Below are positions 1 through 16,702 of a stretch of 34,958 nucleotides of DNA, one piece after another (position 1 is the stretch's first letter; every line of letters begins with the position of its first letter). This stretch comes from an uncultured Gammaproteobacteria bacterium (GTDB taxonomy: Bacteria; Patescibacteriota; Microgenomatia; UBA12405): NCBI GenBank assembly GCA_964425635.1, contig CAYRMT010000002.1:1-34958 (forward strand), in the 5' to 3' direction. The position numbers were made by a program, and so were the translations under genes. The notes beneath the pieces were generated by a model. That model did no database searches. It saw only the letters and a program-made list of their open reading frames with translations, and was not told where the DNA came from.

Positions 1-2
1 CC

Positions 3-1157
3 GACAATGTCGTCAAACGACGTGATGTCGTTGGTATCGACGGTTCTATTATTACTCATCCTACCGTTTGGCAAGCCTCTGGTCATGTTAAGAATTTTGC
101 CGATGTTATGGTTGAATGTAAATCATGCCATAAAAGATTTCGTCCCGACCTTCTCGACGATCCATCAAAATGTCCAGAATGTGGCGGTCAATTTACTGAA
201 GGTCGTAAATATAATATTTTATTTGAAACCAAAATTGGTGTTATTGAAGGTGAAAAACAACACGCTTATTTAAGGGGAGAAGCTTGTCAAACTATTTATC
301 TTGATTTTAAAAACATTGTCGATTCTTGCCGCGTCAAAATTCCTTTTGGTATTGCCCAAATCGGAAAAGCTTTCAGAAATGAAATCACTCCCAAAAACTT
401 CCTTTATCGCACCCGTGAATTTGAGCAATGGGACATTCAATATTTTGTCCATCCAACTGAAATGGATAAATGGTTTGAATACTGGAAAGAAAATCGTATG
501 ACTTGGTATAAAAAAATATTTAATGATTCCAAAAATTTAAGATTTAGAGAACACGCCAAAGATGAATTAGCTTTTTATGCCAAAAAAGCTTTTGATATCG
601 AATATAACGCTCCCTGGGGCTGGGCAGAAATGGAAGGAATCCATTGGCGTTCAGACTATGATTTAACTCAACATTCCAAATTCAGCAAACAAGATCTTTC
701 TTACCTCGATCCAGTCACCCACGAAAAATATCTACCCCACATCACCGAAACCTCCGGCGGTGTCGATCGCAGTTTCTTTTTTATACTTCTCGATGCTTAT
801 CAAGAAGAAAAAACAGAATCAGGTGAAATTCGTACCGTTTTAAAAATAAACCCCAAGATTTCTGCCTATAAAATGGCCATTCTTCCACTTGCTGCCAACA
901 AACCAGAATTAATCAAAAAAGCTGAAAATATTTTTGGGAAATTAAATGAAAAATATTCAGTTGATTGGGATGATAGCAGTAATATAGGTAAAAAATATCG
1001 TCGTCAAGATGAAATTGGTACTCCTTGGTGTCTAGTTGTTGATTATCAAACCCTAGACGACAACACTGTTAGTATTCGTGATCGAGACACTATGAAGCAA
1101 ATTCGAATCAAAACCGATGAAGTTGACAATTGGTTGGAAAAACAGTTAAATAAATAG
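3..1157 (+). CDS. glyQS: glycine--tRNA ligase (GlyQS type), 5'-truncated at window edge
   Basis: The frame is open from nt 3 (DNVVKRRDVVGIDGSIITHPTVWQASGHVKNFADVMVECKSCHKRFRPD), so the ATG at 108 is internal. The WxASGHV motif, CxxC..CxxC insert and C-terminal anticodon-binding region (KKYRRQDEIGTPWCLVVD) are typical of class II GlyRS. Confidence 0.9.
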   Translation, partial: DNVVKRRDVVGIDGSIITHPTVWQASGHVKNFADVMVECKSCHKRFRPDLLDDPSKCPECGGQFTEGRKYNILFETKIGVIEGEKQHAYLRGEACQTIYLDFKNIVDSCRVKIPFGIAQIGKAFRNEITPKNFLYRTREFEQWDIQYFVHPTEMDKWFEYWKENRMTWYKKIFNDSKNLRFREHAKDELAFYAKKAFDIEYNAPWGWAEMEGIHWRSDYDLTQHSKFSKQDLSYLDPVTHEKYLPHITETSGGVDRSFFFILLDAYQEEKTESGEIRTVLKINPKISAYKMAILPLAANKPELIKKAENIFGKLNEKYSVDWDDSSNIGKKYRRQDEIGTPWCLVVDYQTLDDNTVSIRDRDTMKQIRIKTDEVDNWLEKQLNK

Positions 1158-1158
1158 T

Positions 1159-1872
1159 ATGAAGAAACCAATAATAATTTTTATTTCAATTGGTATTGTT
1201 GTTTTAGTTCCATTAATTTTATTCCTAAATTTAGGTAAAAAAAATACATCTGATAATAAAACTGTTACCAAAACCACTACTCAAGCTACAAAAAAGATTG
1301 AATTATCAGCCGACGAAAAACCCTATATTAATCTTATTCCAAGTTCTGAAGGCCACAATTTAACATTTAAAATTAAAGATATCCCTACTAAATTTACCAC
1401 CGCTGAATACGAATTAATTTATACCGCCAAAGACGAAAATATAGAAATTGAAAAAGGAGTCAGTGGCACAGTTGAACTATCCGGAGGTACCCTTGAAAAG
1501 GATCTTTTATTAGGCACCGCTAGTTGTACTAATGGTTGTAAATACAAATATGATGAAGGTGTTACTGGAGGAATTCTAAATATAACCCTAAAAACAAATA
1601 ATAAGGAGTATTTTTCATATGAAACCCCATTTGTTCTGACAAATTCGGCCGATATTAATAAAGAAAAGAAAATAACTCTAGCTGAAGAAAATTTTATTAT
1701 CAACTGTACTACCACTTCTAAAAGTGACTTCTTCGTTGCTCTCAAAAATTTCCAATCAACTTATTCTGTCTTCTCGAGTGGTAATGGTAAAGGCAAAATC
1801 ACTTCAATAGAACCCACCACTATTACCAAAACAGATCTCACTTCAATAACTGGTGACTATACTTCCCAATAA
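1159..1872 (+). CDS. hypothetical N-terminally membrane-anchored protein
   Basis: 237 aa ORF starting 2 nt after the glyQS stop and overlapping the rsmH start by 1 nt. One N-terminal hydrophobic helix (IIIFISIGIVVLVPLILFL) is followed by a T/K-rich linker and a soluble domain. I recognise no family. It occupies the slot where mraZ usually sits. Confidence 0.6.
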   Translation: MKKPIIIFISIGIVVLVPLILFLNLGKKNTSDNKTVTKTTTQATKKIELSADEKPYINLIPSSEGHNLTFKIKDIPTKFTTAEYELIYTAKDENIEIEKGVSGTVELSGGTLEKDLLLGTASCTNGCKYKYDEGVTGGILNITLKTNNKEYFSYETPFVLTNSADINKEKKITLAEENFIINCTTTSKSDFFVALKNFQSTYSVFSSGNGKGKITSIEPTTITKTDLTSITGDYTSQ

Positions 1873-2738
1873 TGGATTTCCATACCCCTGTCTTATTAAC
1901 CGAAACCATTGACCTTCTTGATGTCCAAAAAAATAAAATTTATATTGATTGTACTCTTGGTCATGGTGGCCACACCATAGAAATTCTCAAAAGAGGCGGT
2001 ATTGTTTACGGTATAGATCAAGATCCAAAAAATTTAGAAATCGCCACCAATCGAATCAAAGAGGCAGGTTTTGAAAAACATTTTTTTCCAATTCATAATA
2101 ATTTTAATCAATTAGAAAATATCGTTATTAACGATATTAAACAAAAGATCAATGGTTTAGTCATCGATCTCGGCCTTAGTCAAAATCAACAAACTGATCA
2201 AGATAGAGGATTTTCGTTCAACGACAAAAATTCTCTCGATATGAGATTAGACCCAGAAAATCAAGAACTTACCGCTGAAGAAATTATTAATACCTATGAC
2301 TATAATGAACTTTTCGAGATTTTTAGTAAGTACGCCCAAGAAGTGTATAGTAAACCACTAATTCTAAAAATAATCCGTGAACGTCAAAAAAAACCTATCA
2401 GAACAGCCACAAGACTGGCAAATATTATTCGAGATTACTATAAAGAACATCATCATCAATCTAAAATTGATCCCAGCACCAAAATATTTTTAAGTTTAAG
2501 AATCATAGTCAATGACGAATTCAACAATTTAAGAGACATTCTTAATCAAAGTCTAAAAATTGTTATTCCAAACGGTAACGTTTGTATTATTTCTTTTCAT
2601 TCTGGAGAAGATAGAATCATTAAACAATTTATAAAAGATCACAATTTCCCCTCAAAGCCAATCAAACCCTCTTTTGCTGAAATCAAAAAAAATCCTCTCT
2701 CTCGCTCAGCCACTCTAAGATCGTATAAAATAGTATAA
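1872..2738 (+). CDS. rsmH: 16S rRNA (cytosine1402-N4)-methyltransferase RsmH/MraW
   Basis: HTPVLLTETIDLL, DCTLGHGGHT, DLGLSQNQ and ISFHSGEDRI motifs, plus first position in the dcw cluster. Confidence 0.95.
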   Translation: MDFHTPVLLTETIDLLDVQKNKIYIDCTLGHGGHTIEILKRGGIVYGIDQDPKNLEIATNRIKEAGFEKHFFPIHNNFNQLENIVINDIKQKINGLVIDLGLSQNQQTDQDRGFSFNDKNSLDMRLDPENQELTAEEIINTYDYNELFEIFSKYAQEVYSKPLILKIIRERQKKPIRTATRLANIIRDYYKEHHHQSKIDPSTKIFLSLRIIVNDEFNNLRDILNQSLKIVIPNGNVCIISFHSGEDRIIKQFIKDHNFPSKPIKPSFAEIKKNPLSRSATLRSYKIV

Positions 2739-2739
2739 G

Positions 2740-2997
2740 ATGTTAAACAAACCTCTTTTTTTATTTATCTTTTCTCTAATAATTATTCAAGTAATTTTTT
2801 CATTTTTTTATTCCAGTGAAATTATCAATCAAAACAATTTAATTAATCAAAATCAGACCAATCTCCAATTACTCAAAATTAAAAATCAAGAATTAGAAAA
2901 AGAATTAGCCACTCTTTCATCATTATCAAGAATCGAGGCCACTGCCAGTCAAAAAAATTATAAAAACTTAAAAGAAACTATTAATATTCAAAACTAA
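2740..2997 (+). CDS. FtsL-like small bitopic cell division protein
   Basis: 85 aa with an N-terminal TM helix followed by a coiled-coil (LQLLKIKNQELEKELATLSSLSRIEATA). Lies between rsmH and ftsI as in canonical dcw clusters. Confidence 0.6.
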   Translation: MLNKPLFLFIFSLIIIQVIFSFFYSSEIINQNNLINQNQTNLQLLKIKNQELEKELATLSSLSRIEATASQKNYKNLKETINIQN

Positions 2998-2998
2998 A

Positions 2999-4651
2999 GT
3001 GCAAAATTCAAGACCAAAAATATTATCTATTGCCCTAACTTTTTGTTTTATGGTCGTTTCTTTTCGTTTTTTTTATTGGCAAGTTTTAAAAGCTCCAGAA
3101 TTAAAAGAAAAAGCTAAAAATCAAACTTATAAACTTGAAAAAATATTGCCAGAACGCGGGAAAATATATTCTTCCGACAATTTTCCTCTGGTTCTCAATC
3201 AAACAACCTATCAGCTTTCCCTTTATAAACCAAATTTTAAAGAAGATTTGAATACAATTTTAGACAAAATCGAACAAGTCTATACAAACTTTAAAACTGA
3301 AAATAGCGAAGCTCTAGAAAAATTTAAAAATAATCCCAACCAAAAATGGATAACCTTCAATTCTGCTCTAAATGAAAAACAAAAAGATTTACTTAATATA
3401 CCTGGAATTGAATTTCAAAAAATAGAAAAAAGATTTTACCCAGAAAATTCTATGGCTAAAGATATTTTAGGAACCATCGGTAAAGATTTTAGTGGAAACC
3501 AAATTGGATATGGCGGACTAGAAGCTTTTTATCAAAAACAATTACAGGGAAAAACCGGTTTTATTTGGGGACCTCAAGATGCCACCGGAAAAACTATTTT
3601 AAATAAAAAAAACTGGAGTTCTGATGCCATCAATGGTAGAAATATTTTTACCAACATCAATCGCAGTGCTCAATTTTATGTAGAAAAACTTCTTCAAAAA
3701 GGCATTAATGATTTCTCTGCTGATTCCGGTTCAATTACCATCATTCAACCAAAAACTGGAGCGATTTTAGCTATAGCCTCTCTTACCGCCACCAGTTCTG
3801 CTACCCCAAGTTCAATTAGAAACCCAGCTATTTCTGACCTTTTCGAACCTGGATCAATTTTTAAACCATTAGTAGTTTCTATGGCTCTCGACACCAAAAC
3901 CATCGACACTAATTATACTTGCATCAAATGTAACCAACCTCATATTATTGGCAAATACAATATCAGTAATTGGGACAATGAATTTCACGCTAACTCTAGT
4001 CTTCAAGATATTATAAAAAATTCCGATAATATCGGCATGAGTTATATTATTGCCAGACTTGGCCTTGATAATTTTTTAAATTATTATCAAAAACTAGGAC
4101 TCACCCAAAGAACTGGTATTGATCTTCAAGGCGAAGCCAAACCAACCGTCAAAACCGAATGGCCAGAAATTGATTTAGCCACCGCTTCTTTTGGACAGGG
4201 GGTTGTTGTTACTCAAATCGGGATGCTTCAAGCCTTCAATGTTATTGCCAACGATGGTATTTTGGTTAAACCTAAAGTTGTCAATTATTTCACCGAAAAT
4301 AATAAAATTATTAAAAATAAAAATCAAAAAGAAACACAAGTTTTTAACCCACAAACAATAAAAGAAATTAAATCTATTTTAAAATATTCAGTCGAAAACG
4401 GTGTTGTGGCTAAAATGAAACCAGAAAATCTTGAAGTTTGTGCTAAAAGTGGCACTGCACAAGTAGCTATTAGTGGTAGTTATGAAAATAATTCTTCAAC
4501 CATTGCTTCATACATTGGTTTTTCACCTTGTTATAATCCTAAATTTACTATGATTGTGACTATTAATAACCCAAAAACATCACCTTGGGGATCAAGTACA
4601 GCCGCTCCAATTTGGTATGAATTGGCATCAAAATTAAACGATTTGTTATAA
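2999..4651 (+). CDS. ftsI: penicillin-binding protein 2 / FtsI-type peptidoglycan D,D-transpeptidase
   Basis: GTG start, N-terminal TM helix, and transpeptidase motifs SIFK (SxxK), SDN (SxN) and KSGT. Confidence 0.9.
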   Translation: MQNSRPKILSIALTFCFMVVSFRFFYWQVLKAPELKEKAKNQTYKLEKILPERGKIYSSDNFPLVLNQTTYQLSLYKPNFKEDLNTILDKIEQVYTNFKTENSEALEKFKNNPNQKWITFNSALNEKQKDLLNIPGIEFQKIEKRFYPENSMAKDILGTIGKDFSGNQIGYGGLEAFYQKQLQGKTGFIWGPQDATGKTILNKKNWSSDAINGRNIFTNINRSAQFYVEKLLQKGINDFSADSGSITIIQPKTGAILAIASLTATSSATPSSIRNPAISDLFEPGSIFKPLVVSMALDTKTIDTNYTCIKCNQPHIIGKYNISNWDNEFHANSSLQDIIKNSDNIGMSYIIARLGLDNFLNYYQKLGLTQRTGIDLQGEAKPTVKTEWPEIDLATASFGQGVVVTQIGMLQAFNVIANDGILVKPKVVNYFTENNKIIKNKNQKETQVFNPQTIKEIKSILKYSVENGVVAKMKPENLEVCAKSGTAQVAISGSYENNSSTIASYIGFSPCYNPKFTMIVTINNPKTSPWGSSTAAPIWYELASKLNDLL

Positions 4652-4664
4652 TTGAATACTTTCA

Positions 4665-5966
4665 ATGGTTCAAAAATTCAAAAACGTCCTTATACATTTA
4701 CCAAAAAGTTTTTTTTACAATTTAAAGTACGGTTTTCCAAGTAAAAAATTAACTTTAATTGGTATCACTGGAACAGACGGCAAAACTACTACCTGCACCC
4801 TAGTTAATGAAATATTAAAACAATCTGGGCTAAAGACTGGATTAATTACTACTATTGGTGCAAAAATTGGGGATAAAGAAATAGATACTGGGTTTCACAC
4901 CACCACACCAGACCCGTCTATTCTTCAAAAAATTTTCAGCGACATGGTGAAAGCTGGCATTACTCATGTTGTCTGCGAAGTCACTTCACACGCCCTTGAT
5001 CAATATCGTTTTTGGGGTTGTAACTTTGAAATTTCTGGTATCACCAACACTTCACACGAACACCTTGATTATCATAAAAATTTAGAATCGTACATTGGAA
5101 CTAAATCTAAACTTTTCTCAATTTCTAAAAGCGCTATTCTGAACAAAGACGATCAATCGTTCGACTTAATAAAAAAACAAATTAAAATTCCTTTTAAAAC
5201 ATTTGGTATAAAAAAAACCTCAGATTATCAAGCCCAAAAAATTAAATTAGACTCAAATTCATTAAGTTTCCATGTTAATGGCCAAAAATTTATCACCGAT
5301 AGTAATTATGAATATCAAGTTTACAATATCCTTTTAGCAACCGCAATTTGTTATAAACTAGGAATAAAATCAGAAATAATTCAACAGGTAATAAAGCATT
5401 TTCCAGAAACAAAAGGTCGTCGAGAAGAAGTCCAAAATGAACTCAAATTTAAAACCATTATCGATTTTGCTCACACCCCATTTGCTCTTGAATCATCGCT
5501 TTCTTCACTCAAAAAAACTAATCCAGGAAAAACTATAGTCATTTTTGGAGCCACTGGTGGGCGAGATCAAAGTAAACGCCCAATAATGGGGGAAATCGTT
5601 TCTAAATTGGCCAATATAGCGTTAATCACATCCGACGACACCAGAAATGAAAAAATAGAAAATATCAACAAACAAATAATAAATGGTATTGATCCCAAAA
5701 AATCAGAACTAATTGATTATCAAGAAATTAAAAATAAAAAACAAATTCAAAAAGTAATTGAATTATCTAATAAAAAATTTATATATTTCAATATTCCCAA
5801 TCGTCAAGACGCATTTAATTTGGCCATAAAATTAGCTCAACCAGACGATGTCGTTATTGCTTGCGGTAAAGGCCACGAAACTACTATTCTTCACGGAAAT
5901 ACCGAGTATCCCTGGTCAGAAGCAGAGGCCTTCAGAACCGCTTTCAGGCTTCGAAAAACAAAATAA
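4665..5966 (+). CDS. murE: MurE-type Mur ligase (UDP-MurNAc-L-Ala-D-Glu:diamino acid ligase) lacking most of the N-terminal domain
   Basis: P-loop GITGTDGKTTT, HALDQYR, TNTSHEHLDYH, DFAHTP, GATGGRDQSKRP, TSDDTRNE (equivalent of the MurE DNPR motif) and GKGHE. Only about 35 residues precede the P-loop. Confidence 0.85.
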   Translation: MVQKFKNVLIHLPKSFFYNLKYGFPSKKLTLIGITGTDGKTTTCTLVNEILKQSGLKTGLITTIGAKIGDKEIDTGFHTTTPDPSILQKIFSDMVKAGITHVVCEVTSHALDQYRFWGCNFEISGITNTSHEHLDYHKNLESYIGTKSKLFSISKSAILNKDDQSFDLIKKQIKIPFKTFGIKKTSDYQAQKIKLDSNSLSFHVNGQKFITDSNYEYQVYNILLATAICYKLGIKSEIIQQVIKHFPETKGRREEVQNELKFKTIIDFAHTPFALESSLSSLKKTNPGKTIVIFGATGGRDQSKRPIMGEIVSKLANIALITSDDTRNEKIENINKQIINGIDPKKSELIDYQEIKNKKQIQKVIELSNKKFIYFNIPNRQDAFNLAIKLAQPDDVVIACGKGHETTILHGNTEYPWSEAEAFRTAFRLRKTK

Positions 5967-5967
5967 T

Positions 5968-6558
5968 ATGACAAAATTTAATTTAAAAAATACCAAAAGT
6001 ATTGATCAAAATTACCAAAATGGTCTTCTTCCTCAAAGGAATGACAAAAATTTATTTTATTCCCAAACCAGTTGTCGGTCTAATTTAAAAAATTTCAACT
6101 TAAGTTCTGAAAATCGTCGAATTTTAAGAAAAACAGAAGATTTCACCTTCGAAAAAATAAATCTAAAAGATTTCAACTACGATTCAAAAATTCAAAAAGA
6201 AATTACCATCTGGATAAAAACACTCGGTTGGAATTTTCCAGTCAGTTCAATAAAAAATGTTTTTAAAAACCATATTTTTAATTATCTTTACATATGGAAA
6301 GATGAACAAAAAAATATCATTGCCTATTCTCTTTGCTATTTTTCAAAAAACATTAGTCATATTGCCTATGTTTTTTATAATCCAGAATTCACCCATGGAA
6401 ATCTACCTATCCGTTTAGTTTTACAAGTCATCATCGACAGTCAAGAATTAGGTTTAAATTTTTGTTATCTCGGTCGCTTCTCTAAAAACACCGGTTTTTA
6501 TAAACGTAACATGCCAGGTTTTGAATATTATAAAGATAATCAATGGACTAAATTATGA
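5968..6558 (+). CDS. arginyl/leucyl-tRNA--protein transferase (ATE/Bpt) family homolog, minimal form
   Basis: The first ATG outside murE is at 5968, 1 nt after the murE stop; the 5848 start in the ORF track lies inside murE. Resembles Bpt/ATE: FNLSSENRRILRK (like the ATE_N LSRSQRR segment), and SHIAYVFYNPEF...LPIRLVLQVI...GLNFCYLGRFSKNTGFYKRNMPGFEYY...QW (like ATE_C FYDPE...YLGY...YK..F.P.E). ATGA overlap with the next gene. Confidence 0.6.
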   Translation: MTKFNLKNTKSIDQNYQNGLLPQRNDKNLFYSQTSCRSNLKNFNLSSENRRILRKTEDFTFEKINLKDFNYDSKIQKEITIWIKTLGWNFPVSSIKNVFKNHIFNYLYIWKDEQKNIIAYSLCYFSKNISHIAYVFYNPEFTHGNLPIRLVLQVIIDSQELGLNFCYLGRFSKNTGFYKRNMPGFEYYKDNQWTKL

Positions 6559-7928
6559 AAATACACATTTTAGGAATCGCCGGCACCATGACTGCTTCTC
6601 TAGCTGTCGCCCTTAAAAGAGAAGGTCACATTGTTTCTGGTTCCGACCAGGAAAAAATATATCCACCTATTAGTACTATCCTTAAAAAAGCCAATATTAA
6701 AATTAATTCATCCAAAATTGATTCCGATATAGATTTAGCTATCATCGGATCATCGTTCTCTAATTTTAAAAGAACTAAAGAAGAATTTGATCAAATTAAA
6801 AAATTAAAAATCAAATATGTTTCTGCCAGTGAATTTGTTGCTCAAAATTTGGGTAAAGAAAATTCAATTTTAATCGCTGGAACTTATGGTAAAACCACTA
6901 TTTCCTCCCTTGTTTCTTGGATTTTCGATCAAGCCAATTTAAAACCTAACTACATGTTTGGCGGGAAAGCCTTAAACCGCTTCCCATCAGTCAATAATTC
7001 ACCATCAAACTGGTCTATTATTGAAGCAGACGAATCAATTAATGGCCTCGATACTCAAGCTAAATTTTTATACTACCCGGTTAAATTTTTACTTTTAACC
7101 AGTGCTGATTGGGAGCACAAAGATTCTTATTCCACTGAAATCGAAAACTTTAATGCCTTCAAAAAATTAATTTTAAATATCCCCAAAGACGGCATTTTGT
7201 TTATCAATTCAAAAGGATATCAAACTAAAGAATTAAGTCTTTATTCAAAATCAAAAATAATTACCTACAATTCATCCACATCAGACTATTTTATTAAAGA
7301 TATAAAAATTAAAAAAAATTATACTATTCTATTCTGTCAAACTCCTAAAAATATTATTGAAATTAAAACCAAACTTATTGGTCAATTTAATTTTGAAAAC
7401 ATTTTGGCTGCCATTACTATCACTGATAGTTTAAACATTCCTCAAACTAAAATTAAACAGGCTATCTTAAAATTTAAGGGTATCAATCGTCGAATCGAAA
7501 AAATTTATGATTATAAAAAAATTATAATTTTTGACGATTTTGCCCAATCTCCCAATAGAATTAAATCAACGATTGAGGCTGTAAAATTACATTTTCCTAA
7601 AAACAAAATAAAAGTTTTATACCAACCCCACGCTTCTTTTATTCAACACAAAAAAAGTTTAAAAGAATTCAAAAACGTTTTTGATTCAGTTTCTGAAGTT
7701 GTTTTATCAAAATTAAGTTTTAATAATAAAATTAAAAAAAACAATCGTGTCACTGCCAAAAATTTTAAAGAGGTTATAGGTGATAAATTAATTTATCTTC
7801 CTGTTGACGAAGATATCCCTTCCTTTTACCAAAAAAATTTAACCCCAGGTGACATATTAATCAATATGAGTTCTGGTGGTTTAAGTGGAAATAAAATCAT
7901 CAAATCAATTATTAATTCTTTAAAATAA
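6555..7928 (+). CDS. mpl: Mur ligase of the Mpl/MurC family, closest in appearance to UDP-N-acetylmuramate:L-alanyl-gamma-D-glutamyl-diamino acid ligase (Mpl)
   Basis: N-terminus MKIHILGIAGTMTASLAVALKREGHIVSGSDQEKIYPPISTILKKANI, P-loop GTYGKTT, IIEADESI...KFLYYP, ADWEHKDSY, and C-terminus GDILINMSSGGLSGNKII. From memory these parallel E. coli Mpl (YPPMS, IIEADEYD, MSNGGFGG) better than MurC. Mpl versus MurC specificity cannot be settled by eye. Confidence 0.8.
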   Translation: MKIHILGIAGTMTASLAVALKREGHIVSGSDQEKIYPPISTILKKANIKINSSKIDSDIDLAIIGSSFSNFKRTKEEFDQIKKLKIKYVSASEFVAQNLGKENSILIAGTYGKTTISSLVSWIFDQANLKPNYMFGGKALNRFPSVNNSPSNWSIIEADESINGLDTQAKFLYYPVKFLLLTSADWEHKDSYSTEIENFNAFKKLILNIPKDGILFINSKGYQTKELSLYSKSKIITYNSSTSDYFIKDIKIKKNYTILFCQTPKNIIEIKTKLIGQFNFENILAAITITDSLNIPQTKIKQAILKFKGINRRIEKIYDYKKIIIFDDFAQSPNRIKSTIEAVKLHFPKNKIKVLYQPHASFIQHKKSLKEFKNVFDSVSEVVLSKLSFNNKIKKNNRVTAKNFKEVIGDKLIYLPVDEDIPSFYQKNLTPGDILINMSSGGLSGNKIIKSIINSLK

Positions 7929-7931
7929 TTT

Positions 7932-9260
7932 ATGTCCAGATACATTATTAATGGCGGCAAACCACTCAAAGGTGAGGTTTCGATTAGAGGTGCTAAAAAT
8001 GCCAGCTTTAAACAAATAATTGCTTCCATGCTAACCAATCAAACTGTCCGATTAAATAATGTTCCTCAAATTTCTGATGTAAAAATAACCACCAGTATTG
8101 CCAAAAATCTTGGTTGTCGAATAACTCAAACAGGGGATCATAGTCTTGAATTAACTACTCAAAAAATTATTAATTCTACTGTTCCTAGTGGTACTGGTGA
8201 AAAATCTAGATCATCATTTATGTTTGTTGCTCCTTTACTTACCAGAACTGGAACCGCCATCGTTCCAATTCCAGGTGGTGATAAGCTTGGCGATCGACCA
8301 TTGGACCGTCTTTTCGACTGTTTCTCTCAAATGAATATTAAAGTGTCTGAAAACGAAAACATTATTACTTTTAATACTGACAAAATTATTGGTACTCACT
8401 ACACTTTTACCAAACCATCACACACCGTCACTGAAGCTATTATCATGACTGCCGTTCTTGCCAACGGTGAAACAATCATTGACAATGCCGCCCTTGAACC
8501 AGAAATTGACGATTTAATTTTAATGTTAAATCAAATGGGGGCTAATATTCAAAGAGATTCCCAAAATAATAAAAGAATAGTTGTTCAGGGAGTTTCTAAA
8601 TTGAACGGAATAGAACACAACGTAATTTGTGATCGAAACGAAATTGTCACTTTTGCTTGTGCTGCCTTAGCCACCAAGGGCTCCGTTTCTATTTTTAGAG
8701 TCAAACCAAGCGTTGTTCAAACATTTTTAGAAATTATTAAAAAAATGGGAGCCAAAGTTAAAACCGGTAATGACGAAATTTATGTTGAATGGGTTAAACC
8801 ACTAACCAGTATTAATATTGAAACCGAACCAGAACCAGGATTTATGACCGATTGGCAGGCAATTTTTTCAGTCCTTTTAACTCAAAGTGTCGGTTGTAGT
8901 TCCATTATTGAAAAAGTCTATCCTAGTCGATTTCAACACATCGAAAATCTTAAAAAAATGGGAGTTAAAGTTAATTTTTTCAATCCAGAAATAAATAATC
9001 CCAAAGAATACTATCAGTTTAACCCAGAAAGTGACCGATTAGAATATTTCCATGGTGTTAAAATTTATGGCCCAACTAAATTAAAACCAGCCAATTTCAT
9101 TATTAAAGATCTTCGGGCAGGAGCTTCAGCTACAATTGCTGCTTTAACCGCATCAGGAAAATCAACTATTGATGGAGTTGAATATATTGAACGCGGATAT
9201 GAAAAATTAGCCGAGCGTCTTTGGTCTTTAGGTGCTAACATAGAATATATAAAAACATAA
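7932..9260 (+). CDS. murA: UDP-N-acetylglucosamine 1-carboxyvinyltransferase (MurA), Asp-type active site
   Basis: Full-length enolpyruvyl transferase: ISGAKNA-like IRGAKNAS, the active-site loop PIPGGDKLGDRPLD, and the C-terminal LRAGASATIAAL and ERGYEKL motifs. Confidence 0.95.
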   Translation: MSRYIINGGKPLKGEVSIRGAKNASFKQIIASMLTNQTVRLNNVPQISDVKITTSIAKNLGCRITQTGDHSLELTTQKIINSTVPSGTGEKSRSSFMFVAPLLTRTGTAIVPIPGGDKLGDRPLDRLFDCFSQMNIKVSENENIITFNTDKIIGTHYTFTKPSHTVTEAIIMTAVLANGETIIDNAALEPEIDDLILMLNQMGANIQRDSQNNKRIVVQGVSKLNGIEHNVICDRNEIVTFACAALATKGSVSIFRVKPSVVQTFLEIIKKMGAKVKTGNDEIYVEWVKPLTSINIETEPEPGFMTDWQAIFSVLLTQSVGCSSIIEKVYPSRFQHIENLKKMGVKVNFFNPEINNPKEYYQFNPESDRLEYFHGVKIYGPTKLKPANFIIKDLRAGASATIAALTASGKSTIDGVEYIERGYEKLAERLWSLGANIEYIKT

Positions 9261-9264
9261 TTTT

Positions 9265-10299
9265 ATGATTCATTTATACTTAGGTCTACTTCTCTTTTCT
9301 TTTTTAATAACCAGTATTTTGGTTGTCCCTTTTATTAATCTCCTTTATAAATTTAAATTTCAACGACAAACCCAAAAAACTACCGATTTTCAAAACAAAA
9401 GAGCTACTATTTTTGACAAATTTCACAACCAAAAATCAGGCACGCCAGTCGGTGGTGGCTTATTGATCATCGTTACTGTTTCTATTCTTTTTATTTTACT
9501 TTTCCCTATTCTCAAATTTTCCAAAATTTTTATTTCATCAAACTACACCATCACTCACGAAATCGCCATTCTATTTTTTACTTTTATCAGTTTTGGATTA
9601 CTCGGTCTTTACGATGACATTCTAAAATTTTTTGGATTCAAAAAAACCGGATTTTTCGGATTGAGAATGATCTATAAGTTAATATTACAATTAATAATTT
9701 CCCTAATCATTTCTCTAATGATTTATTTTCAACTAAGAATTGATTTTATCTATTTGCCCTTTTTTGGAGTTATTAATTTAGGGTGGCTTTTTATTCCAGT
9801 TTCAGTCGTTTTTATTACTGGGTTTGCTAATTTCTTTAATATCACCGATGGTCTTGATGGTTTATCATGCGGTCTTCTAATGTTTGCTCTTTTTGCTTTT
9901 TGGATTCTTGCCAGCACTTCAATGGACACTGTTCTTTCATCTTTTTTAGCCCTCTGGATTGGATCTCTAATTGCATTTCTTTATTTTAATGTTTACCCAG
10001 CCAGAATCTGGCTCGGCGATGTTGGTTCGCTTTCTTTTGGTGCCACTTTTGCCGTAATTGCTTTACTTCTAGGCAAAGTGGTTCCTTTACTTATTGTTGG
10101 GTCCCCATTTATCATTGAAGGATTATCCAGTACTATTCAATTATTCAGTAAAAAATATTTTCACAAGAAAATTTTTCCAGCTGCTCCAATTCATTTAACT
10201 CTTCAAAATTTAGGATGGGAAGAGCCAAAAATTGTTTTTAGAGCTTGGTTGGCTGGAATTATATTAGCAGTTTTTGGACTATGGTTAGGACTAAATTAG
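9265..10299 (+). CDS. mraY: phospho-N-acetylmuramoyl-pentapeptide transferase (MraY)
   Basis: Polytopic membrane protein with the NITDGLDGL, GDVGSL and QLFSKK..KIFPAAPIHL motifs. Confidence 0.95.
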   Translation: MIHLYLGLLLFSFLITSILVVPFINLLYKFKFQRQTQKTTDFQNKRATIFDKFHNQKSGTPVGGGLLIIVTVSILFILLFPILKFSKIFISSNYTITHEIAILFFTFISFGLLGLYDDILKFFGFKKTGFFGLRMIYKLILQLIISLIISLMIYFQLRIDFIYLPFFGVINLGWLFIPVSVVFITGFANFFNITDGLDGLSCGLLMFALFAFWILASTSMDTVLSSFLALWIGSLIAFLYFNVYPARIWLGDVGSLSFGATFAVIALLLGKVVPLLIVGSPFIIEGLSSTIQLFSKKYFHKKIFPAAPIHLTLQNLGWEEPKIVFRAWLAGIILAVFGLWLGLN

Positions 10300-10820
10300 A
10301 ATTACAACAAGAGATAGAAAAATATATTGGCCTACCTTATAGTAAAAATATTCTTAAAGACAGAAAAATAATCAAAGAACAATTTCTTGGAGGTAAGGGT
10401 AATTGTCTCCAAATTGCCACTGAAACCATCAGGCTCGCTCAAAAACAAAAAATAGATTTAACTAAATTAAACAATCAAGAATTTTATAATTTCCAAAAAA
10501 AGAATCATATTGGTATCGATTGCTCTGGTCTTGCTTGCCAATTATTAAACTTTTATTTTAGTTCTGAATTAAATCCTCGCAAAACTTCTGCCAATATGCT
10601 CACTTCCGCTCCAATTTCCAAAAAAATAAAACCAAACGAAATTAAAACAGGGGATTTGGTTCGACAAAAAAACGGTCATCACGTTTTATTTATAATTGAA
10701 AAAGAAGGCGATAAAATTCTTTATGTCGACAGCTCTCGCGAAGGCAGGGGAGTCAAATATAGTGTCGCCAATATCACCGACAAATCATTTATCCATCAAG
10801 GCTTTTTTAGATTGAATTAA
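10281..10820 (+). CDS. NlpC/P60-family cysteine peptidase-like protein, no signal peptide
   Basis: The first ATG is at 10281; the 10245 start in the ORF track is a TTG deep inside mraY. GIDCSGLACQLL carries the nucleophile Cys and GDLVRQKNGHHVLFII the His, matching the NlpC/P60 DCSGf / GDLvf..HVgiy pattern. The hydrophilic N-terminus suggests a cytoplasmic location. Confidence 0.65.
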   Translation: MVRTKLELQQEIEKYIGLPYSKNILKDRKIIKEQFLGGKGNCLQIATETIRLAQKQKIDLTKLNNQEFYNFQKKNHIGIDCSGLACQLLNFYFSSELNPRKTSANMLTSAPISKKIKPNEIKTGDLVRQKNGHHVLFIIEKEGDKILYVDSSREGRGVKYSVANITDKSFIHQGFFRLN

Positions 10821-10824
10821 TCTA

Positions 10825-10983
10825 TTATTTCTCTTCAATTAATTCCCTGTATTTCAACGGTTTTAAAGATAAAATCTCAACCTCAGTTCCACATTCAGGG
10901 CACTCAATTATATCTCCAACCATCGTGGCTTCTATTAATTCAATTTCTGTTTTACAATCAGGACAAATAACTTTTTCGTTCAT
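10825..10983 (-). CDS. LysW-like zinc-ribbon small protein (candidate amino-group carrier protein); absent from the supplied ORF track
   Basis: My translation gives 52 aa: MNEKVICPDCKTEIELIEATMVGDIIECPECGTEVEILSLKPLKYRELIEEK. It has an ATG start, a TAA stop and two CPxC knuckles. The layout mirrors Thermus LysW as I recall it (CPECGAEL...GELVVCEDCGAELEV..LDPLRL + acidic tail), but the tail ends EEK rather than EDWGE. Confidence 0.55.
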   Translation of the reverse strand: MNEKVICPDCKTEIELIEATMVGDIIECPECGTEVEILSLKPLKYRELIEEK

Positions 10984-11023
10984 ATTTTATTAAAATTAAT
11001 AACTAGTATAATTAAACTATTAT

Positions 11024-11845
11024 ATGGCAAATACACCTTTAATTAAATTAGAAAATGTTTATCTCAAAAGAGAAGACTTAAACGAAACTGGTTCTGCTAA
11101 AGATCGGGCTATGTTTTTTCAAATCGAAAATTTAAAAAAACAGGGTTTTAAAAATGCCGTAATTTCTAGTACTGGTAATGCTGCTATTTCTGCTGCCCAT
11201 TTTTGCCATTTAAATCAAATTGATTTAACTATTTTTGTTTCACCAAAAATCAATAAAGCTAAATTTGATTTACTTAAAAAAGATGGTGGTCAAATTTTTA
11301 TTACTGATCAACCCATCAGTGAATCTATAAAATTTTCCAAAAAAAATCATACTTATCTTCTTCGTCAATCAACCGATCCTAGTGCCCTAATTGGCTACCA
11401 AGAAATCGGCAAAGAATTAATGAATGAATTACCCCAAATTACCAGTATTTTCATCCCAGTTGGTAGCGGTACTACTCTTTTAGGAATCTCCCAAGTACTG
11501 CCATCATCAGTAAAAATCTATGCCATTCAACCAGCTAGCAATTGCCCCTTGTCTAAATTTTTTGATTCAAACTACCAATCAGAAACAGAAAATATAACCG
11601 ATGCCTTATCTGCTAAATTTCTTCCTTTAAAATCTCAAATAATTTCAACCATCAAAAATAGTGGCGGAACTGGTTTAGTTATTCAAAATAATGAAATTTT
11701 AGAAGCCCAAAAAATACTAGATTCAAATGAAATTAAAACATCTCTTGAGGGTGCCATGGCTTTAGCAGGCTTTAAAAAAGCTATCAAAAATAACCTAAAT
11801 ATTGGTAATTATCCAGTCATAATTTTAACCGGATGTCAAAGATAA
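11024..11845 (+). CDS. fold-type II PLP-dependent enzyme, threonine synthase / Trp-synthase-beta (PALP) family, short form
   Basis: TPLIKLENVYLKREDLNETGSAKDR carries the PLP lysine, followed by ISSTGNAAISAAHF and IPVGSGTTLLG (phosphate-binding loop). At 273 aa it is shorter than typical ThrC. Confidence 0.75.
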   Translation: MANTPLIKLENVYLKREDLNETGSAKDRAMFFQIENLKKQGFKNAVISSTGNAAISAAHFCHLNQIDLTIFVSPKINKAKFDLLKKDGGQIFITDQPISESIKFSKKNHTYLLRQSTDPSALIGYQEIGKELMNELPQITSIFIPVGSGTTLLGISQVLPSSVKIYAIQPASNCPLSKFFDSNYQSETENITDALSAKFLPLKSQIISTIKNSGGTGLVIQNNEILEAQKILDSNEIKTSLEGAMALAGFKKAIKNNLNIGNYPVIILTGCQR

Positions 11846-12939
11846 ATTTAGAAAAAATTATCAACAATTCTCCTTATATTTTCTTTTTTTTAGTGGTCGA
11901 TAAATATTTAGACATTGATATCCCTAAATTAAAAAACTTTGAAAAAATCTATCTTTCAGACTATCCGTCGATCAAAGAAAAAAACAGTGGCAAATTATTA
12001 TCAAATTCAAAAGTTATTGATTTTATTCTTAAAAAATCTCAAAAAGCCAAACTCACACCTGCTATCATTCCTTTCAAACCATCTGCCAAAATTGACTTGA
12101 TTTGTCAAAAAAATAATTGGGTAAGTATTAGTAATCCAGGCCCCATTAATCGTTTTTTGGAAGACAAAATTAAATTTGCCAAACTTTGTCAAAAATATAA
12201 ATTATCAACTATTCCTTTTTCTATCGATACTTTCTCACAAAAAAATTTTTTGAAATACCAAAAGCTGTACGGTAAAAAATTAGTTATTCAAACCCATTTT
12301 GGTTGGGCAGGTAATAGTACATTTTCGGCCGAATCTTGGGATGAAATTAAAAACAAAATTTCTTCTGGTATCATCGTAAAATACAGTCCTTTTATTCAAT
12401 CTTCTTACTCTTTACTAAATAATTGCTGTCTTACCAAATTTGGTTTAATTCAAAGCCCGCCCGCCCTTCAATACACCGGAATTTCTCCATACACCAAAAA
12501 TCCTTTTACCACCGTCGGTCGCCAATGGCCATCCTTTGCTCCATTAAAAACAAAAGGTGAAATTAATAAAATAACTGAAAAATTCGGTAAAATTTTAAAA
12601 GAAATTGGCTACAAAGGTTTTTTTGGTCTCGACTTTTTGGTCTATAAAAACAAAGTTTTTTTATTAGAATGCAATCCTCGTTTAACTGCCTCTTTTGGTT
12701 TTTACACAACAATAGAAGAAAAACAAAATATTACCCCTCTCTTTTATTTTCATCTTGCCGAATTTTTAAAACTTGATTATCAAATCGATATTAAAAAAGA
12801 AAAGACCAGATTTAACAATAAAAAAATTATCGGTTCAGAACTAACTCCTAAAGATAAAAATAATCATACCTGTCAAAAATTAAACTTTAATTTTCCTTTA
12901 TCAAAAACCACTAATCCTATTTCTCTAAAAATTAAATGA
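11833..12939 (+). CDS. ATP-grasp family carboxylate-amine ligase, specificity unknown
   Basis: C-terminal ATP-grasp core: KLVIQTHFGWAGNSTF, GYKGFFGLDFLVYKNKVFLLECNPRLTASFG. Overlaps the upstream PLP gene by 13 nt and the ftsW start by ATGA. Does not look like Ddl or a Mur ligase. Confidence 0.7.
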   Translation: MSKINLEKIINNSPYIFFFLVVDKYLDIDIPKLKNFEKIYLSDYPSIKEKNSGKLLSNSKVIDFILKKSQKAKLTPAIIPFKPSAKIDLICQKNNWVSISNPGPINRFLEDKIKFAKLCQKYKLSTIPFSIDTFSQKNFLKYQKLYGKKLVIQTHFGWAGNSTFSAESWDEIKNKISSGIIVKYSPFIQSSYSLLNNCCLTKFGLIQSPPALQYTGISPYTKNPFTTVGRQWPSFAPLKTKGEINKITEKFGKILKEIGYKGFFGLDFLVYKNKVFLLECNPRLTASFGFYTTIEEKQNITPLFYFHLAEFLKLDYQIDIKKEKTRFNNKKIIGSELTPKDKNNHTCQKLNFNFPLSKTTNPISLKIK

Positions 12940-14102
12940 AAGAAACTAAATCCCCACTTTTATTTTTAGTTTTCAGTTTGGTCTTTATTGGACTAATTTT
13001 TATTTCCATCTCATCATTAAGTGAAGCCAGCTCATCAATTGGAGACAAATTTTTTTACATTAAAAAACAAGTATTTTGGCTAATTTTAGGAATATTTTCT
13101 TTTTATATAACTTCCAAAATAAATATTAAAACCATTAAAAAATTTTCTTTCGCTCTTTATACTATTTCCATCCTTGGACTAATATTAGTTTTAATTCCAA
13201 GTTTAGGCAACGAAGCCCTCGGTGCCAGACGCTGGCTAAATTTAGGTTTCACCAGTATTCAACCTTCAGAAATTTTAAAATTAACCTCCATTATTTATTT
13301 TTCTTTTCTTTTTTCAAAAAAAGAAAATCTTCATATAAAAAATCTTATTTTTTATCTTGGTTTGCCATTCATTTTAATAATTATCGAACCAAATTTAAGC
13401 ACCGCTATTTTAATTTCAGCTATTGTCAGTTCCATTTATTATCTTTCTGGAGGAGATATTGTCCCTTTGTTTAGTATTTTTAGTATTATTCTAATTGTCA
13501 GTATTCCCTTAATTTTTTTATCACCATACAGATCAGCCAGATTAAAAACTTTTTTAGAACCGCAGCAAAATCAAGAAACTTCCTCATATCACAGCAACCA
13601 AATAATTTTAACCCTATCTTCTGGAGGAATTTTTGGTAAAGGTTTTGCCAATTCAGACCAAAAATACAAATTCCTTCCTAAAATTTCCACCGATTCAATC
13701 CTTGCTGTTATTGGTGAAGAAGTTGGTTTTATAGGAATTTTTGCAGTTCTTTTAATTTATCTTTCTTTAATAAATTATCTTTTAAAATTTTCTCAAACAA
13801 TCGACGATCCATTTCAAAGTTTAATAGTATCCGGAAGCGCCTGTTGGATTGCTTATCAAAGTTTAATCAATATTTCTGCCATCACTGCTCTTATTCCACT
13901 CACCGGGGTCACTCTTCCATTTATTTCCTATGGCGGCTCTTCACTTATTACACTTTTTGTCGTTATTGGTCTGGTTAGAAATATCGAAAAAAACCAAAAA
14001 AAATTGTTATACTCAAAGAGTGAACAAGACAAAAAAGACGATCATAATCACCGGAACACATCTAACACCAGCCCTAGAACTAATTCGTCAATTGAAAGCT
14101 GA
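12936..14102 (+). CDS. ftsW: SEDS-family peptidoglycan glycosyltransferase FtsW
   Basis: Ten-TM-type protein with RWLNLGFTSIQPSEILKL, SDSILAVIGEEVGFIG and LPFISYGGSSL motifs, at the dcw position before murG. The hydrophilic tail overlaps the murG start region. Confidence 0.9.
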   Translation: MKETKSPLLFLVFSLVFIGLIFISISSLSEASSSIGDKFFYIKKQVFWLILGIFSFYITSKINIKTIKKFSFALYTISILGLILVLIPSLGNEALGARRWLNLGFTSIQPSEILKLTSIIYFSFLFSKKENLHIKNLIFYLGLPFILIIIEPNLSTAILISAIVSSIYYLSGGDIVPLFSIFSIILIVSIPLIFLSPYRSARLKTFLEPQQNQETSSYHSNQIILTLSSGGIFGKGFANSDQKYKFLPKISTDSILAVIGEEVGFIGIFAVLLIYLSLINYLLKFSQTIDDPFQSLIVSGSACWIAYQSLINISAITALIPLTGVTLPFISYGGSSLITLFVVIGLVRNIEKNQKKLLYSKSEQDKKDDHNHRNTSNTSPRTNSSIES

Positions 14103-15096
14103 TAAAAAAAATGATTGGCAAATAAATTACATCGGTCGAAAAAATAATTCTAGTGTCGACAAAAATCCTTCGATTGAATCAAAAATTATCCCAAAAACAG
14201 GTATTAAGTTTTATTCAATTAATTGTGGTAAATTTGATCGCCGTTGGGTTCCTAATACTATTAAAGGTCTTCCGCAAACCATTAAATCATTATTTGAAGC
14301 CTCAAAATTAATCAAAAAAATAAAACCAGACATAGTTATTTCCTTTGGTGGATACGTTTCTGTTCCGGTTATTATTAGTAGTTTTTTTAGAAAAATACCA
14401 TCAATTACCCACGAACAAACTTTAACCAACAGCTTAACCACTAAAATCAATAGTTTTTTTGTCAACAAAATCGCTCTTTCTTTTAACAATCAGCAACAAA
14501 AAGAAAAACTACCAAAAAACAAAATTGTTGTTACAGGAAATCTCTTAAGGCAAGAATTGTTTCACCCTCAAAAAAATAAAATAGGGGACAACATCGACAT
14601 TTTTATAACTGCTGGCAATCAAGGCTCTCATGTAATAAATATTTTAATTAAAAAAATTCTTCCTGAATTAAAAAATTATTATATTATTCACCAAACAGGT
14701 AAAAAAGATTTTTTTAGTTTTAAAAAATTAACTAAAATTCATCCTAAATATAAAGTTTTTGATTATCTAGAATCAAAAGATATGGCCTATGTTTTAAACA
14801 AGACAAAACTAGTTGTTGGCCGTTCCGGCGCCAACACTTGTCAAGAAATTGTCGCCCTAAACAAAAAATCTATTTTAATTCCCCTAAAAATCAGTCAACA
14901 AAATGAACAATTACTAAATGCTCTTTGGGTTAAAGAAAAAAACCCAAAAAATACCCAAATTTTAGAAGAAAAAGATATTACTGAAAAAAATATTTTAGAA
15001 AAAATTAAAAAATTAATTACCAATAAAAACAAAAAAAACATTTCTAAAAACACTGATAACCTAAAACTTTTAAATTTAATCCATGAAATTCTTTAA
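14020..15096 (+). CDS. murG: undecaprenyldiphospho-muramoylpentapeptide beta-N-acetylglucosaminyltransferase (MurG)
   Basis: GT28 features: N-terminal beta-strand plus loop IIITGTHLTPALEL (degenerate form of GGTGGH..PAL), FGGYVSVPV, GRSGANTCQEIVALNKKSILIP. The frame is open from the ATG at 13930, deep in ftsW. I favour the GTG at 14020 (VNKTKKTIIITG), but the start is uncertain. Confidence 0.85.
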   Translation: MNKTKKTIIITGTHLTPALELIRQLKADKKNDWQINYIGRKNNSSVDKNPSIESKIIPKTGIKFYSINCGKFDRRWVPNTIKGLPQTIKSLFEASKLIKKIKPDIVISFGGYVSVPVIISSFFRKIPSITHEQTLTNSLTTKINSFFVNKIALSFNNQQQKEKLPKNKIVVTGNLLRQELFHPQKNKIGDNIDIFITAGNQGSHVINILIKKILPELKNYYIIHQTGKKDFFSFKKLTKIHPKYKVFDYLESKDMAYVLNKTKLVVGRSGANTCQEIVALNKKSILIPLKISQQNEQLLNALWVKEKNPKNTQILEEKDITEKNILEKIKKLITNKNKKNISKNTDNLKLLNLIHEIL

Positions 15097-16700: not shown

Positions 16701-16702
16701 AT

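Follow-up and report, generated by a model that had tools for sequence, protein, structure and literature searches.

We found that a 196-residue protein encoded at positions 5968..6558 (+) of the 34,958-nucleotide stretch of DNA analysed here (the window) is a true but divergent homologue of the ATE/Bpt aminoacyl-tRNA transferases. The window is a cell-wall and division (dcw) region of a Patescibacterium of the Candidatus Shapirobacteria type, the name borne by the nearest homologues of the protein, and the gene in question (the ATE-like gene) lies between murE and a ligase of the MurC/Mpl family. The explanation that we favour, and to which we give about an even chance, is that Patescibacteria (the candidate phyla radiation, CPR) recruited a minimal, Cys-less descendant of the ATE/Bpt enzymes to cytoplasmic peptidoglycan-precursor synthesis; the broader claim, that the protein has a role of some kind in peptidoglycan-precursor synthesis, is a rather likely one. 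JGI pipelines label the family arginyl-tRNA-protein transferase, NCBI labels it hypothetical, and in the full-text literature searched we found no description of the family, of its linkage to Mur genes or of the accessory genes described below. The enzyme class, an aminoacyl-tRNA transferase of the ATE lineage, is known; its pathway context is new and its substrate is probably new.

Homology and fold of the ATE-like protein

The assignment draws on the open reading frame (ORF), hidden Markov models (HMMs), hhalign, AlphaFold and Foldseek. Pfam ATE_C (PF04377) matches residues 102-174 of the window protein (E=2e-4, 22.4 bits; gathering score 25). Seven NCBIfam arginyltransferase models also match, with E-values from 4.6e-8 to 3.6e-3, all far under their equivalog cut-offs; the top score of 32.6 bits does not reach the corresponding cut-off of 267. 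These alignments place residues ~35-196 on model positions ~64-244, and the first ~60 residues of Bpt are therefore absent from the window protein. With hhalign, the family profile aligns to the canonical, Cys motif-containing Bpt reference P0270 with 98.4% probability (E=4.8e-15, 164 columns), and P0270 itself hits the ATE1 of both K. lactis and human at ~1e-20. The alignment pairs FNLSSENRRILRK with FQLSRSQKRVLTK, HIAYVFYNPEF with SAVYTFFDPDV, and CYLGRF...FYKRNMPGFEYY..QW with VYLGYY...SYKVNFRPIELL..VWQ, the same segment pairs that the first-pass annotation of this DNA had matched by eye.

Across 79 diverse family members, ATE_C is detected in 70 (best 3e-10), the FemAB-related Acetyltransf_6 in 32 and ATE_N in none. 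The first 60 residues of representatives contain few or no cysteines and the four-Cys Zn/Fe-S site of ATE_N is absent, which bears out the earlier remark that the N-terminal Cys cluster is missing; what remains of ATE_N is its last part alone, the helix region. The Pfam model for the leucyl/phenylalanyl (L/F)-transferase Aat, Leu_Phe_trans, gives no match at E<=1, and this enzyme is not among the top 50 structural matches. Pfam FemAB likewise matches neither the window protein nor any of the 79 members.

The AlphaFold model of the window protein (predicted local distance difference test, pLDDT, 88.8; predicted TM-score, pTM, 0.87) consists of an N-terminal β-hairpin/helix subdomain of ~57 residues followed by one GNAT domain. 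The first-pass annotation had credited ATE enzymes with a duplicated GNAT fold; this does not hold, since ATE1 has a single GNAT fold (PMC9351520; yeast ATE1 preprint), as has the model obtained here. In a Foldseek search of the PDB, ATE1 from human, yeast and K. lactis ranks first (E=1.7e-8, TMq 0.69-0.73), followed by the MprF aminoacyl-phosphatidylglycerol synthase domains and then by Weissella FemX (1xf8, E=8e-6), so that the leading neighbours are all aminoacyl-tRNA transferases. Searching PDB sequences with the close-family profile returned nothing relevant, and a broad profile returned weak GNAT and ATE1 matches, of which the GNAT acetyltransferase 3d8p is the best (E=2.9e-4). Kinship with aminoacyl-tRNA transferase folds of the ATE, Fem and MprF type was thus recovered by HMM, by profile-profile comparison and by structure.

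Conservation of catalytic and tRNA-binding residues

Residue roles were taken from the K. lactis Ate1 (klAte1) study (PMC9351520) and the yeast ATE1 preprint, mapped by alignment and counted in the 79-member alignment. Residues Y178-K179 (codons 6499..6504, +) are equivalent to Tyr303-Lys304 of klAte1 and Phe304-Lys305 of FemX and are invariant (79/79). In klAte1, Lys304 is catalytic and stabilises the tetrahedral intermediate, and the K304A variant is inactive (PMC9351520). The family's most conserved motif, SSENRRILRK (S46-K55; codons 6103..6132, +), corresponds to the basic α3 helix of Ate1 and is helical from residue 47 to 55 in the AlphaFold model. Its basic positions are retained in most members: Arg or Lys at R50 in 77, Arg at R51 in 76, Arg or Lys at R54 in 63 and Lys or Arg at K55 in 70. 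The α3 helix binds the 3′ end of tRNA and is reported to be common to the aminoacyl-tRNA transferases and absent from other GNATs (PMC9351520).

These two features bear directly on whether the protein uses tRNA at all. A GNAT fold would also suit an N-acyltransferase that depends on acyl-CoA instead of tRNA and has a peptidoglycan precursor or an amino sugar as its substrate, and 11 of the 79 members do match Acetyltransf_1 weakly, the best profile match among PDB sequences is the acetyltransferase 3d8p, and most members have an xLGxG/A-like β4-α3 turn. In the window protein, however, this turn reads N145-L-P147, with Pro in place of the pyrophosphate-binding Gly, and the closest structures are those of aminoacyl-tRNA transferases. 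Because the tRNA helix that other GNATs lack and the Tyr-Lys pair of the Fem, ATE and aminoacyl-phosphatidylglycerol synthase class are both conserved, we regard tRNA-independent acyl transfer as quite improbable.

The residues that determine specificity in Ate1 are those that have changed. The Arg-binding pocket of Ate1 is formed by Ser255, Ser273, Glu277 and Tyr289 (PMC9351520). The equivalent positions are I132, L150, V154 and C166 in the window protein and Y, M/L, A/T/V and I/V/C/L across the family; the acidic residue corresponding to Glu277 is absent from the window protein, and Glu is found there in 4 of 79 members. The pocket is therefore hydrophobic and Bpt-like, and Arg is an unlikely donor. 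Arg80 of the GFRRSG motif recognises N-terminal Asp/Glu in Ate1/Bpt (PMC9351520). When GFRRSG is set by eye on G19-L-L-P-Q-R24, the Arg80 position is Leu or Val in 77 of 79 members, in a segment that hhalign leaves unaligned and for which, as for the N-terminal 30 residues as a whole, the register to ATE_N was set by eye and is uncertain. R24 itself is Arg in 41 of 79. A further conserved residue, His131 on β4, is specific to the family and present in 71 of 79. As judged from these alignments, the catalytic and tRNA-handling parts of the enzyme are kept and the parts specific to the N-degron pathway are not, a pattern that fits a changed acceptor rather than a lost activity.

Gene order and conserved pairing with a Mur ligase

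The coordinates given for the ATE-like gene in the first-pass annotation were confirmed: its ATG lies 1 nt past the murE TAA (5964-5966), and an ATGA at 6555-6558 combines its stop with the start of the ligase gene. Translation of the gene is coupled to that of murE on one side and of the Mur ligase on the other. The murE gene (4665..5966, +) encodes a UDP-N-acetylmuramic acid (UDP-MurNAc)-tripeptide synthetase (NCBIfam murE, E up to 2.5e-109). The order in the window is glycine-tRNA ligase (GlyRS), a 237-residue ORF, rsmH, ftsL, ftsI, murE, the ATE-like gene, the MurC/Mpl-type ligase, murA and mraY, followed by genes for an NlpC/P60-like peptidase, a LysW-like mini-protein (minus strand), a pyridoxal phosphate (PLP) enzyme of the PALP family and an ATP-grasp enzyme, and then by ftsW, murG, a possible ftsQ, ftsA and ftsZ.

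Homologues of the window protein number 562. An exhaustive HMM search of 1.84 billion cluster representatives gave no more than 227 clusters at E<=1e-3, and the family is therefore small. When one genome for each GTDB species was scanned with a pattern, 513 genomes proved to carry a relative. Related loci were sought with SSENRRIL-containing members and the best 80 were inspected. All 80 are of Patescibacteria type, and the family was found in Patescibacteria only. They comprise 42 close loci (protein at least 50% identical to that of the window) and 38 distant ones (28-36%).

Gene order in the 42 close loci is as in the window. In the distant loci two other arrangements occur: class A, with the order ftsI-murE-ATE-like-ligase-murB-murA-ddl-murF-mraY-NlpC-PALP, and class B, seen in Paceibacteria, Taylorbacteria and similar lineages, with the order ATP-grasp-NlpC-mraY-ATE-like-ligase-LysW-like (minus strand)-PALP. 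A MurC/Mpl-type ligase follows within 150 bp of the ATE-like gene in all 40 eligible close loci; in the distant loci it lies downstream on the same strand in 32 of 35 and within 1 kb in 30 of 35. The placement is thus conserved in relatives and survives rearrangement, and in one lineage the two genes are joined in frame. The resulting 645-residue protein (P0122) consists of an ATE-like domain, a Pro/Ser linker and the ligase, and it is identical in three assemblies with the same dcw context. In some lineages an inserted methyltransferase gene or reversed ORF separates the pair: a class I S-adenosylmethionine-dependent methyltransferase-like gene at 8629-9318 of locus L079, and a reversed 163-residue ORF at 8643-9134 (-) of L070.

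In Paceibacteria-type loci the genes for MraY, the NlpC/P60-like protein, PALP and ATP-grasp still accompany the ATE-like gene, though arranged differently. Despite contig ends, the distant loci have mraY within 8 kb in 31 of 38, PALP in 29, NlpC/P60-like in 25 and ATP-grasp in 24. In Southlakia epibionticum, a cultivated Saccharibacterium, no ATE-like gene precedes that for MurC, and the PBP2, mraY and ftsW genes are contiguous. Its annotation table holds no ATE_C, PALP or NlpC match, the three appearing to be missing together, and it lists no ClpS protein.

To our knowledge, ATE/Bpt enzymes are known solely as writers of N-degrons, and the window protein might be just such an enzyme, a Bpt-type leucyl transferase that marks N-terminal Asp/Glu for ClpS-ClpAP and sits in the dcw cluster by chance. 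Its Bpt homology and Bpt-like hydrophobic donor pocket would agree with that, as would the JGI annotation. The determinants of such a role have been lost, however: ATE_N with its Cys4 site is absent in 79 of 79 members, the essential acidic-substrate Arg80 is replaced by Leu/Val in the by-eye register, and scores fall far under the equivalog cut-offs. CPR-wide synteny and fusion to a Mur ligase are unexpected for a proteolysis factor, and the window ORFs that were scanned with Pfam include no Clp gene. Given this loss and the synteny, we consider an ordinary N-degron function very improbable, and the suggestion of the first-pass annotation, that the enzyme serves the cell wall rather than protein degradation, gains support from synteny, fusion and residue loss alike.

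A few loci yielded no usable context or proved artefactual. In L090 (8001-10430) a distant family member, P0179, is fused to PPDK_N and phosphoenolpyruvate (PEP)-utilizer mobile domains, an ATP-dependent phosphotransferase-like architecture without adjoining Mur genes, and its context is uninformative, as is that of the distant member P0204, which lies on short contigs. An apparent 440-residue fusion in L081 is an artefact of a run of N. Many GTDB representative metagenome-assembled genomes that bear the title 'uncultured Gammaproteobacteria', 'uncultured Candidatus Saccharibacteria' or 'Clostridia bacterium' (for example L006, L008, L014 and L051) have dcw clusters 60-90% identical to those of Shapirobacteria/Paceibacteria, and these titles look like placeholders or mislabels.

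The partner ligase

The ligase encoded at 6555..7928 (+) belongs to the MurC/Mpl family and carries an Mpl-type loop. It scores 242 bits with NCBIfam murC (cut-off 335) and 172 bits with mpl, and the ligases as a set span 242-288 and 172-249 bits, respectively. Its best PDB sequence match is Psychrobacter Mpl (3hn7). The extra loop, described as Mpl-specific by Das et al. (PMC3060825), reads EGDEYSTAKWDKRAKFMHYRP in a class B ligase and EADEYDSAFFDKRSKFVHYRP in PaMpl, and aligning it with MurC requires a gap of 7 residues. Between E.DE and (D/E)H.D, ligases of every class have a spacing of 26-27 residues; this distance is 27 in Mpl and 20 in MurC. Moreover, the window ligase has QPHASFIQ where HiMurC has QPHRYSRT and so lacks the arginines that are reported to hold L-Ala in MurC (PMC3060825). 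The core DKRxK of an Mpl motif is present in 5 of 31 distant ligases, and a search within ±8 kb found no second MurC-type gene. The ligase may act as an Mpl-like peptide ligase, as a MurC or in both capacities. NCBIfam matches agree with the earlier identification of the two neighbours as MurE and a MurC/Mpl-type ligase, and the loop, the spacing, the best PDB sequence match and the missing arginines all agree with the label 'Mpl-like' given to the latter.

The stepwise pathway appears to be present alongside. A class A cluster (L048) contains canonical murB, ddl and murF next to the module genes, and a class B locus contains a MurD-like ligase that scores below cut-off; we take the module to be an addition to the standard pathway and not its replacement, given that these genes share its clusters. 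In the window, neither the dcw cluster (1-17881) nor the whole 35 kb contains murB, murD, murF or ddl, and the search for MurF returned class A relatives only. MurE has DDTR in place of DNPR in all 39 close loci in which the motif was compared, and since meso-diaminopimelate (meso-DAP)-adding enzymes have DNPR, it is uncertain which diamino acid occupies the third position of the stem.

The nature of the ligase raises the possibility that the ATE-like enzyme makes the peptide on which the ligase acts. It would transfer L-Ala or Gly from aminoacyl-tRNA onto the free α-amine of a D-Glu-containing fragment; for example, a γ-D-Glu-diamino acid, scavenged from the host wall or made by the ATP-grasp enzyme, would become a tripeptide that the ligase attaches to UDP-MurNAc. 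The Mpl-specific loop, the 26-27-residue spacing, the best PDB match to Mpl and the absence of the L-Ala-binding arginines from the window ligase would all be expected on this account, as would the strict adjacency of the genes and their fusion in one lineage. The cytoplasmic NlpC/P60-like protein resembles recycling endopeptidases, for which YkfC provides an analogy, and CPR bacteria are auxotrophic. The ancestral acceptor of ATE/Bpt enzymes, the α-amine of an N-terminal Glu/Asp (PMC9351520), would likewise suit a D-Glu-containing fragment. Against it, murE lies directly upstream and a MurD-like ligase, albeit below cut-off, occurs in class B, which leaves the stepwise route apparently intact; since a separate MurC was not seen, the ligase may simply be the MurC of the lineage. 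The Arg with which Ate1/Bpt binds the acidic side chain is apparently not conserved, and DKRxK is found only in those 5 of 31 distant ligases. Weighing these points, we consider this use of the enzyme unlikely, although it retains a real share of the probability.

Accessory genes and a possible carrier protein

The genes downstream of mraY point to a six-gene accessory module composed of the transferase, the Mpl-type ligase, a LysW-like protein, a PLP enzyme, an ATP-grasp enzyme and a cytoplasmic NlpC/P60-like peptidase. The last is encoded at 10245..10820 (+) (Pfam NLPC_P60, 3.8e-5), its true start probably being the ATG at 10281. In four lineages it has a DCSG catalytic motif and no hydrophobic N-terminus, and because it has no signal peptide it is probably cytoplasmic. 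On the opposite strand, 10825..10983 (-) encodes a LysW-like zinc-ribbon mini-protein of 52 residues (Pfam Zn_ribbon_LysW, 7.4e-12, 45 bits; gathering 27). It is present in 59 of the 80 loci and conserved across CPR classes, its gene in every case oriented divergently to the PALP gene, and its last residue is invariably Lys, with C-termini of the forms ...RELIEEK (in the window), ...LLEEEK and ...EIVDEGK. It may serve as a carrier protein, or it may regulate the wall module.

The PALP gene (11024..11845, +; Pfam PALP, 1.8e-44) encodes a fold-type II PLP enzyme whose nearest relatives are threonine synthase, threonine deaminase, serine racemase and cysteine synthase, all far under cut-offs. The ATP-grasp gene (11833..12939, +; Pfam ATP-grasp_3; NCBIfam PRK06524, 9e-30) encodes a carboxylate-amine ligase. 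Its AlphaFold model (pLDDT 92) matches generic folds only in Foldseek (biotin carboxylase, PurK, PurT, PurD), which are not diagnostic. It is not Ddl; a canonical Ddl is encoded in the class A cluster, in a locus that breaks off short of the place where the ATP-grasp gene would be expected. The NlpC/P60-like, PALP and non-Ddl ATP-grasp genes (10245-12939, +) occupy the usual murD site between mraY and ftsW, and in every CPR class sampled they accompany the ATE-like gene.

Could the LysW-like protein itself be the acceptor? The transferase would then act on its C-terminal Lys or on an amino acid tethered to it, within a route resembling those of amino-group carriers, with the ATP-grasp enzyme as loader, the PLP enzyme carrying out side-chain chemistry and the NlpC/P60-like hydrolase releasing an unusual wall amino acid or peptide. 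LysX and LysK accompany LysW in an analogous manner, and here too an ATP-grasp enzyme and a hydrolase accompany a LysW-family zinc ribbon that scores above the Pfam threshold, occurs in 59 of 80 loci beside the PLP gene and ends in ...EEK or ...DEGK; ATE-family enzymes, moreover, ancestrally modify proteins. The transferase gene is nevertheless tied to the ligase and not to the LysW-like gene, the ATP-grasp enzyme has no special similarity to LysX/RimK, the terminal residue is Lys and not the Glu of LysW, and the small protein could be a divergently transcribed regulator. We judge such a carrier pathway improbable.

Proposed mechanism

For the favoured explanation, recruitment of an ATE/Bpt descendant to peptidoglycan-precursor synthesis, the tRNA dependence, donor class, acceptor and product set out here are what we infer. 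The basic SSENRRILRK helix would dock the acceptor end of an aminoacyl-tRNA, and the aminoacyl-A76 end would enter the cleft between β4 and β5 of the GNAT domain. As the pocket predicted in this cleft is hydrophobic, the donor would be a small or non-polar residue (of the Gly, Ala, Ser or Leu type) and not Arg. An amine of a muropeptide precursor would attack the ester, with Lys179 stabilising the tetrahedral intermediate and the near-invariant His131 as the candidate base, and the enzyme would act together with the Mpl-type ligase encoded immediately downstream.

The acceptor could be a FemX-like branch site, a peptide passed to the Mpl-like ligase or a carrier-bound intermediate. We slightly favour the first, in which UDP-MurNAc-tri/pentapeptide or lipid II would receive the amino acid on the side-chain amine of its residue 3 to give a branch or cross-bridge, because Fem chemistry is the sole precedent known to us for a tRNA-dependent step in wall synthesis; this specific acceptor is put forward tentatively, at well below an even chance. 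The ATP-grasp and PLP pair would parallel the D-Asp ligase (Asl)/racemase pairs of enterococci. Alternatively, the CPR wall peptide might be partly assembled or salvaged by a tRNA-dependent, non-canonical route and then coupled to UDP-MurNAc by the Mpl-type ligase; the ATE-derived transferase would build or extend the peptide, maybe on the LysW-like carrier, aided by the ATP-grasp, PLP and NlpC/P60-like enzymes. To this route we assign a low probability.

Several observations weigh against the explanation that we favour. The window protein scores under the Pfam gathering threshold and far under the NCBIfam equivalog cut-offs. The isoelectric point within the family spans 4.95 to 10.1, and a basic surface is thus not universal. 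No tRNA gene was found near the ATE-like gene in the window or in 23 related loci, and we accordingly rejected the idea of a dedicated tRNA adjoining it. The histidine that contacts C75/A76 in FemX and Ate1, His178 of klAte1 (PMC9351520), corresponds to T85 in the window protein and mostly to Phe in the family, in a region where the alignment is of low confidence. The strict pairing with an Mpl-type ligase, the cytoplasmic NlpC/P60-like protein and the LysW-like protein fit the other acceptors at least equally well. Finally, a meso-DAP wall would usually be unbranched.

Comparison with known systems

Bpt (ATE_N plus ATE_C, COG2935) is homologous to residues 33-196 of the window protein, and the two share the FxLSxxxRRIL helix, the xYxFYDP and YLG strands, the catalytic Tyr-Lys and a non-acidic, hydrophobic donor pocket. 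The window protein differs in lacking the first ~35-60 residues with the CxxC/CC metal site and, apparently, the acidic-substrate Arg of GFRRSG, as well as in its place in a dcw operon, its pairing with a Mur ligase and its detection in CPR only. Eukaryotic ATE1 (8tzv, 7tif, 7wg1-4) has the same single GNAT fold, catalytic Lys and basic tRNA helix, but is a protein of 500 residues with a Zn/Fe-S N-domain and a large C-domain that acts on protein N-termini, and it binds Arg through Glu277/Asp277, where the window protein has Val.

FemX, FemXAB and MurM have an equivalent catalytic Lys, a related structure and a wall-synthesis gene context. They add residues from aminoacyl-tRNA to UDP-MurNAc-pentapeptide or lipid II. 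As members of Pfam FemAB they are built from two GNAT-like domains, in some cases with an additional coiled coil, whereas the window protein has one domain and descends from the ATE lineage. The synthase domain of MprF (DUF2156), whose structures rank second as a group among the neighbours, likewise has the catalytic Lys and the tRNA helix; unlike the window protein, it is a duplicated GNAT fused to a membrane flippase and has a lipid acceptor.

The partner ligase shares with Mpl the Mpl-type loop and a DDFA(H/Q)xP motif, but it retains the Mpl motif (S/T)AFFDKRSK only in part and may be the sole MurC; we know of no tRNA-dependent step in Mpl recycling. Like the LysW/LysX amino-group carrier protein systems, the module unites in one cluster a LysW-family zinc ribbon whose tail is acidic, an ATP-grasp enzyme and a hydrolase. 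LysW uses a C-terminal Glu, whereas the tail in the module ends in Lys; the ATP-grasp enzyme of the module is not LysX/RimK-like, and the module lies in the dcw cluster and has no kinase, reductase or aminotransferase.

The ATE-like gene is conserved in a cell-wall operon over a large part of the Patescibacteria. If the favoured explanation is true, the ATE/Bpt family would have a second function, and tRNA-dependent peptidoglycan chemistry would have a second independent origin beside the Fem enzymes. A tRNA-dependent assembly or salvage route would, if true, be a wall-precursor pathway with no described counterpart and the first role of the ATE/Bpt family outside proteolysis. The module may explain how auxotrophic epibionts obtain or tailor wall peptides, and the ATE-like enzyme could mark a lineage-specific target for drugs or probes.

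Other features of the window

Downstream of the ligase lie murA (7932..9260, +; Pfam EPSP_synthase, 8.6e-77) and mraY (9265..10299, +; Pfam Glycos_transf_4). At the other end, the GlyRS gene (3-1157, +) is cut by the start of the window, and a frameshift in it is for this reason only apparent. It is followed at 1159-1872 (+) by the conserved 237-residue ORF, which has no family match and lies directly upstream of rsmH. This pair stands directly 5′ of rsmH in all Microgenomatia-type loci and not in Paceibacteria-type loci; in L085, mraZ lies between the 237-residue ORF and rsmH. We had entertained the upstream GlyRS gene as a hint of a Gly-tRNA donor and dropped it, as it is kept in Microgenomatia-type but not in Paceibacteria-type loci (5 of 38). 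Beyond the dcw cluster, a class I synthetase gene of the isoleucyl-tRNA-synthetase type is followed by a second gene of the FtsW/RodA family (together 18894-22674, +), whose ORF, as called, overlaps the synthetase gene by ~50 nt.

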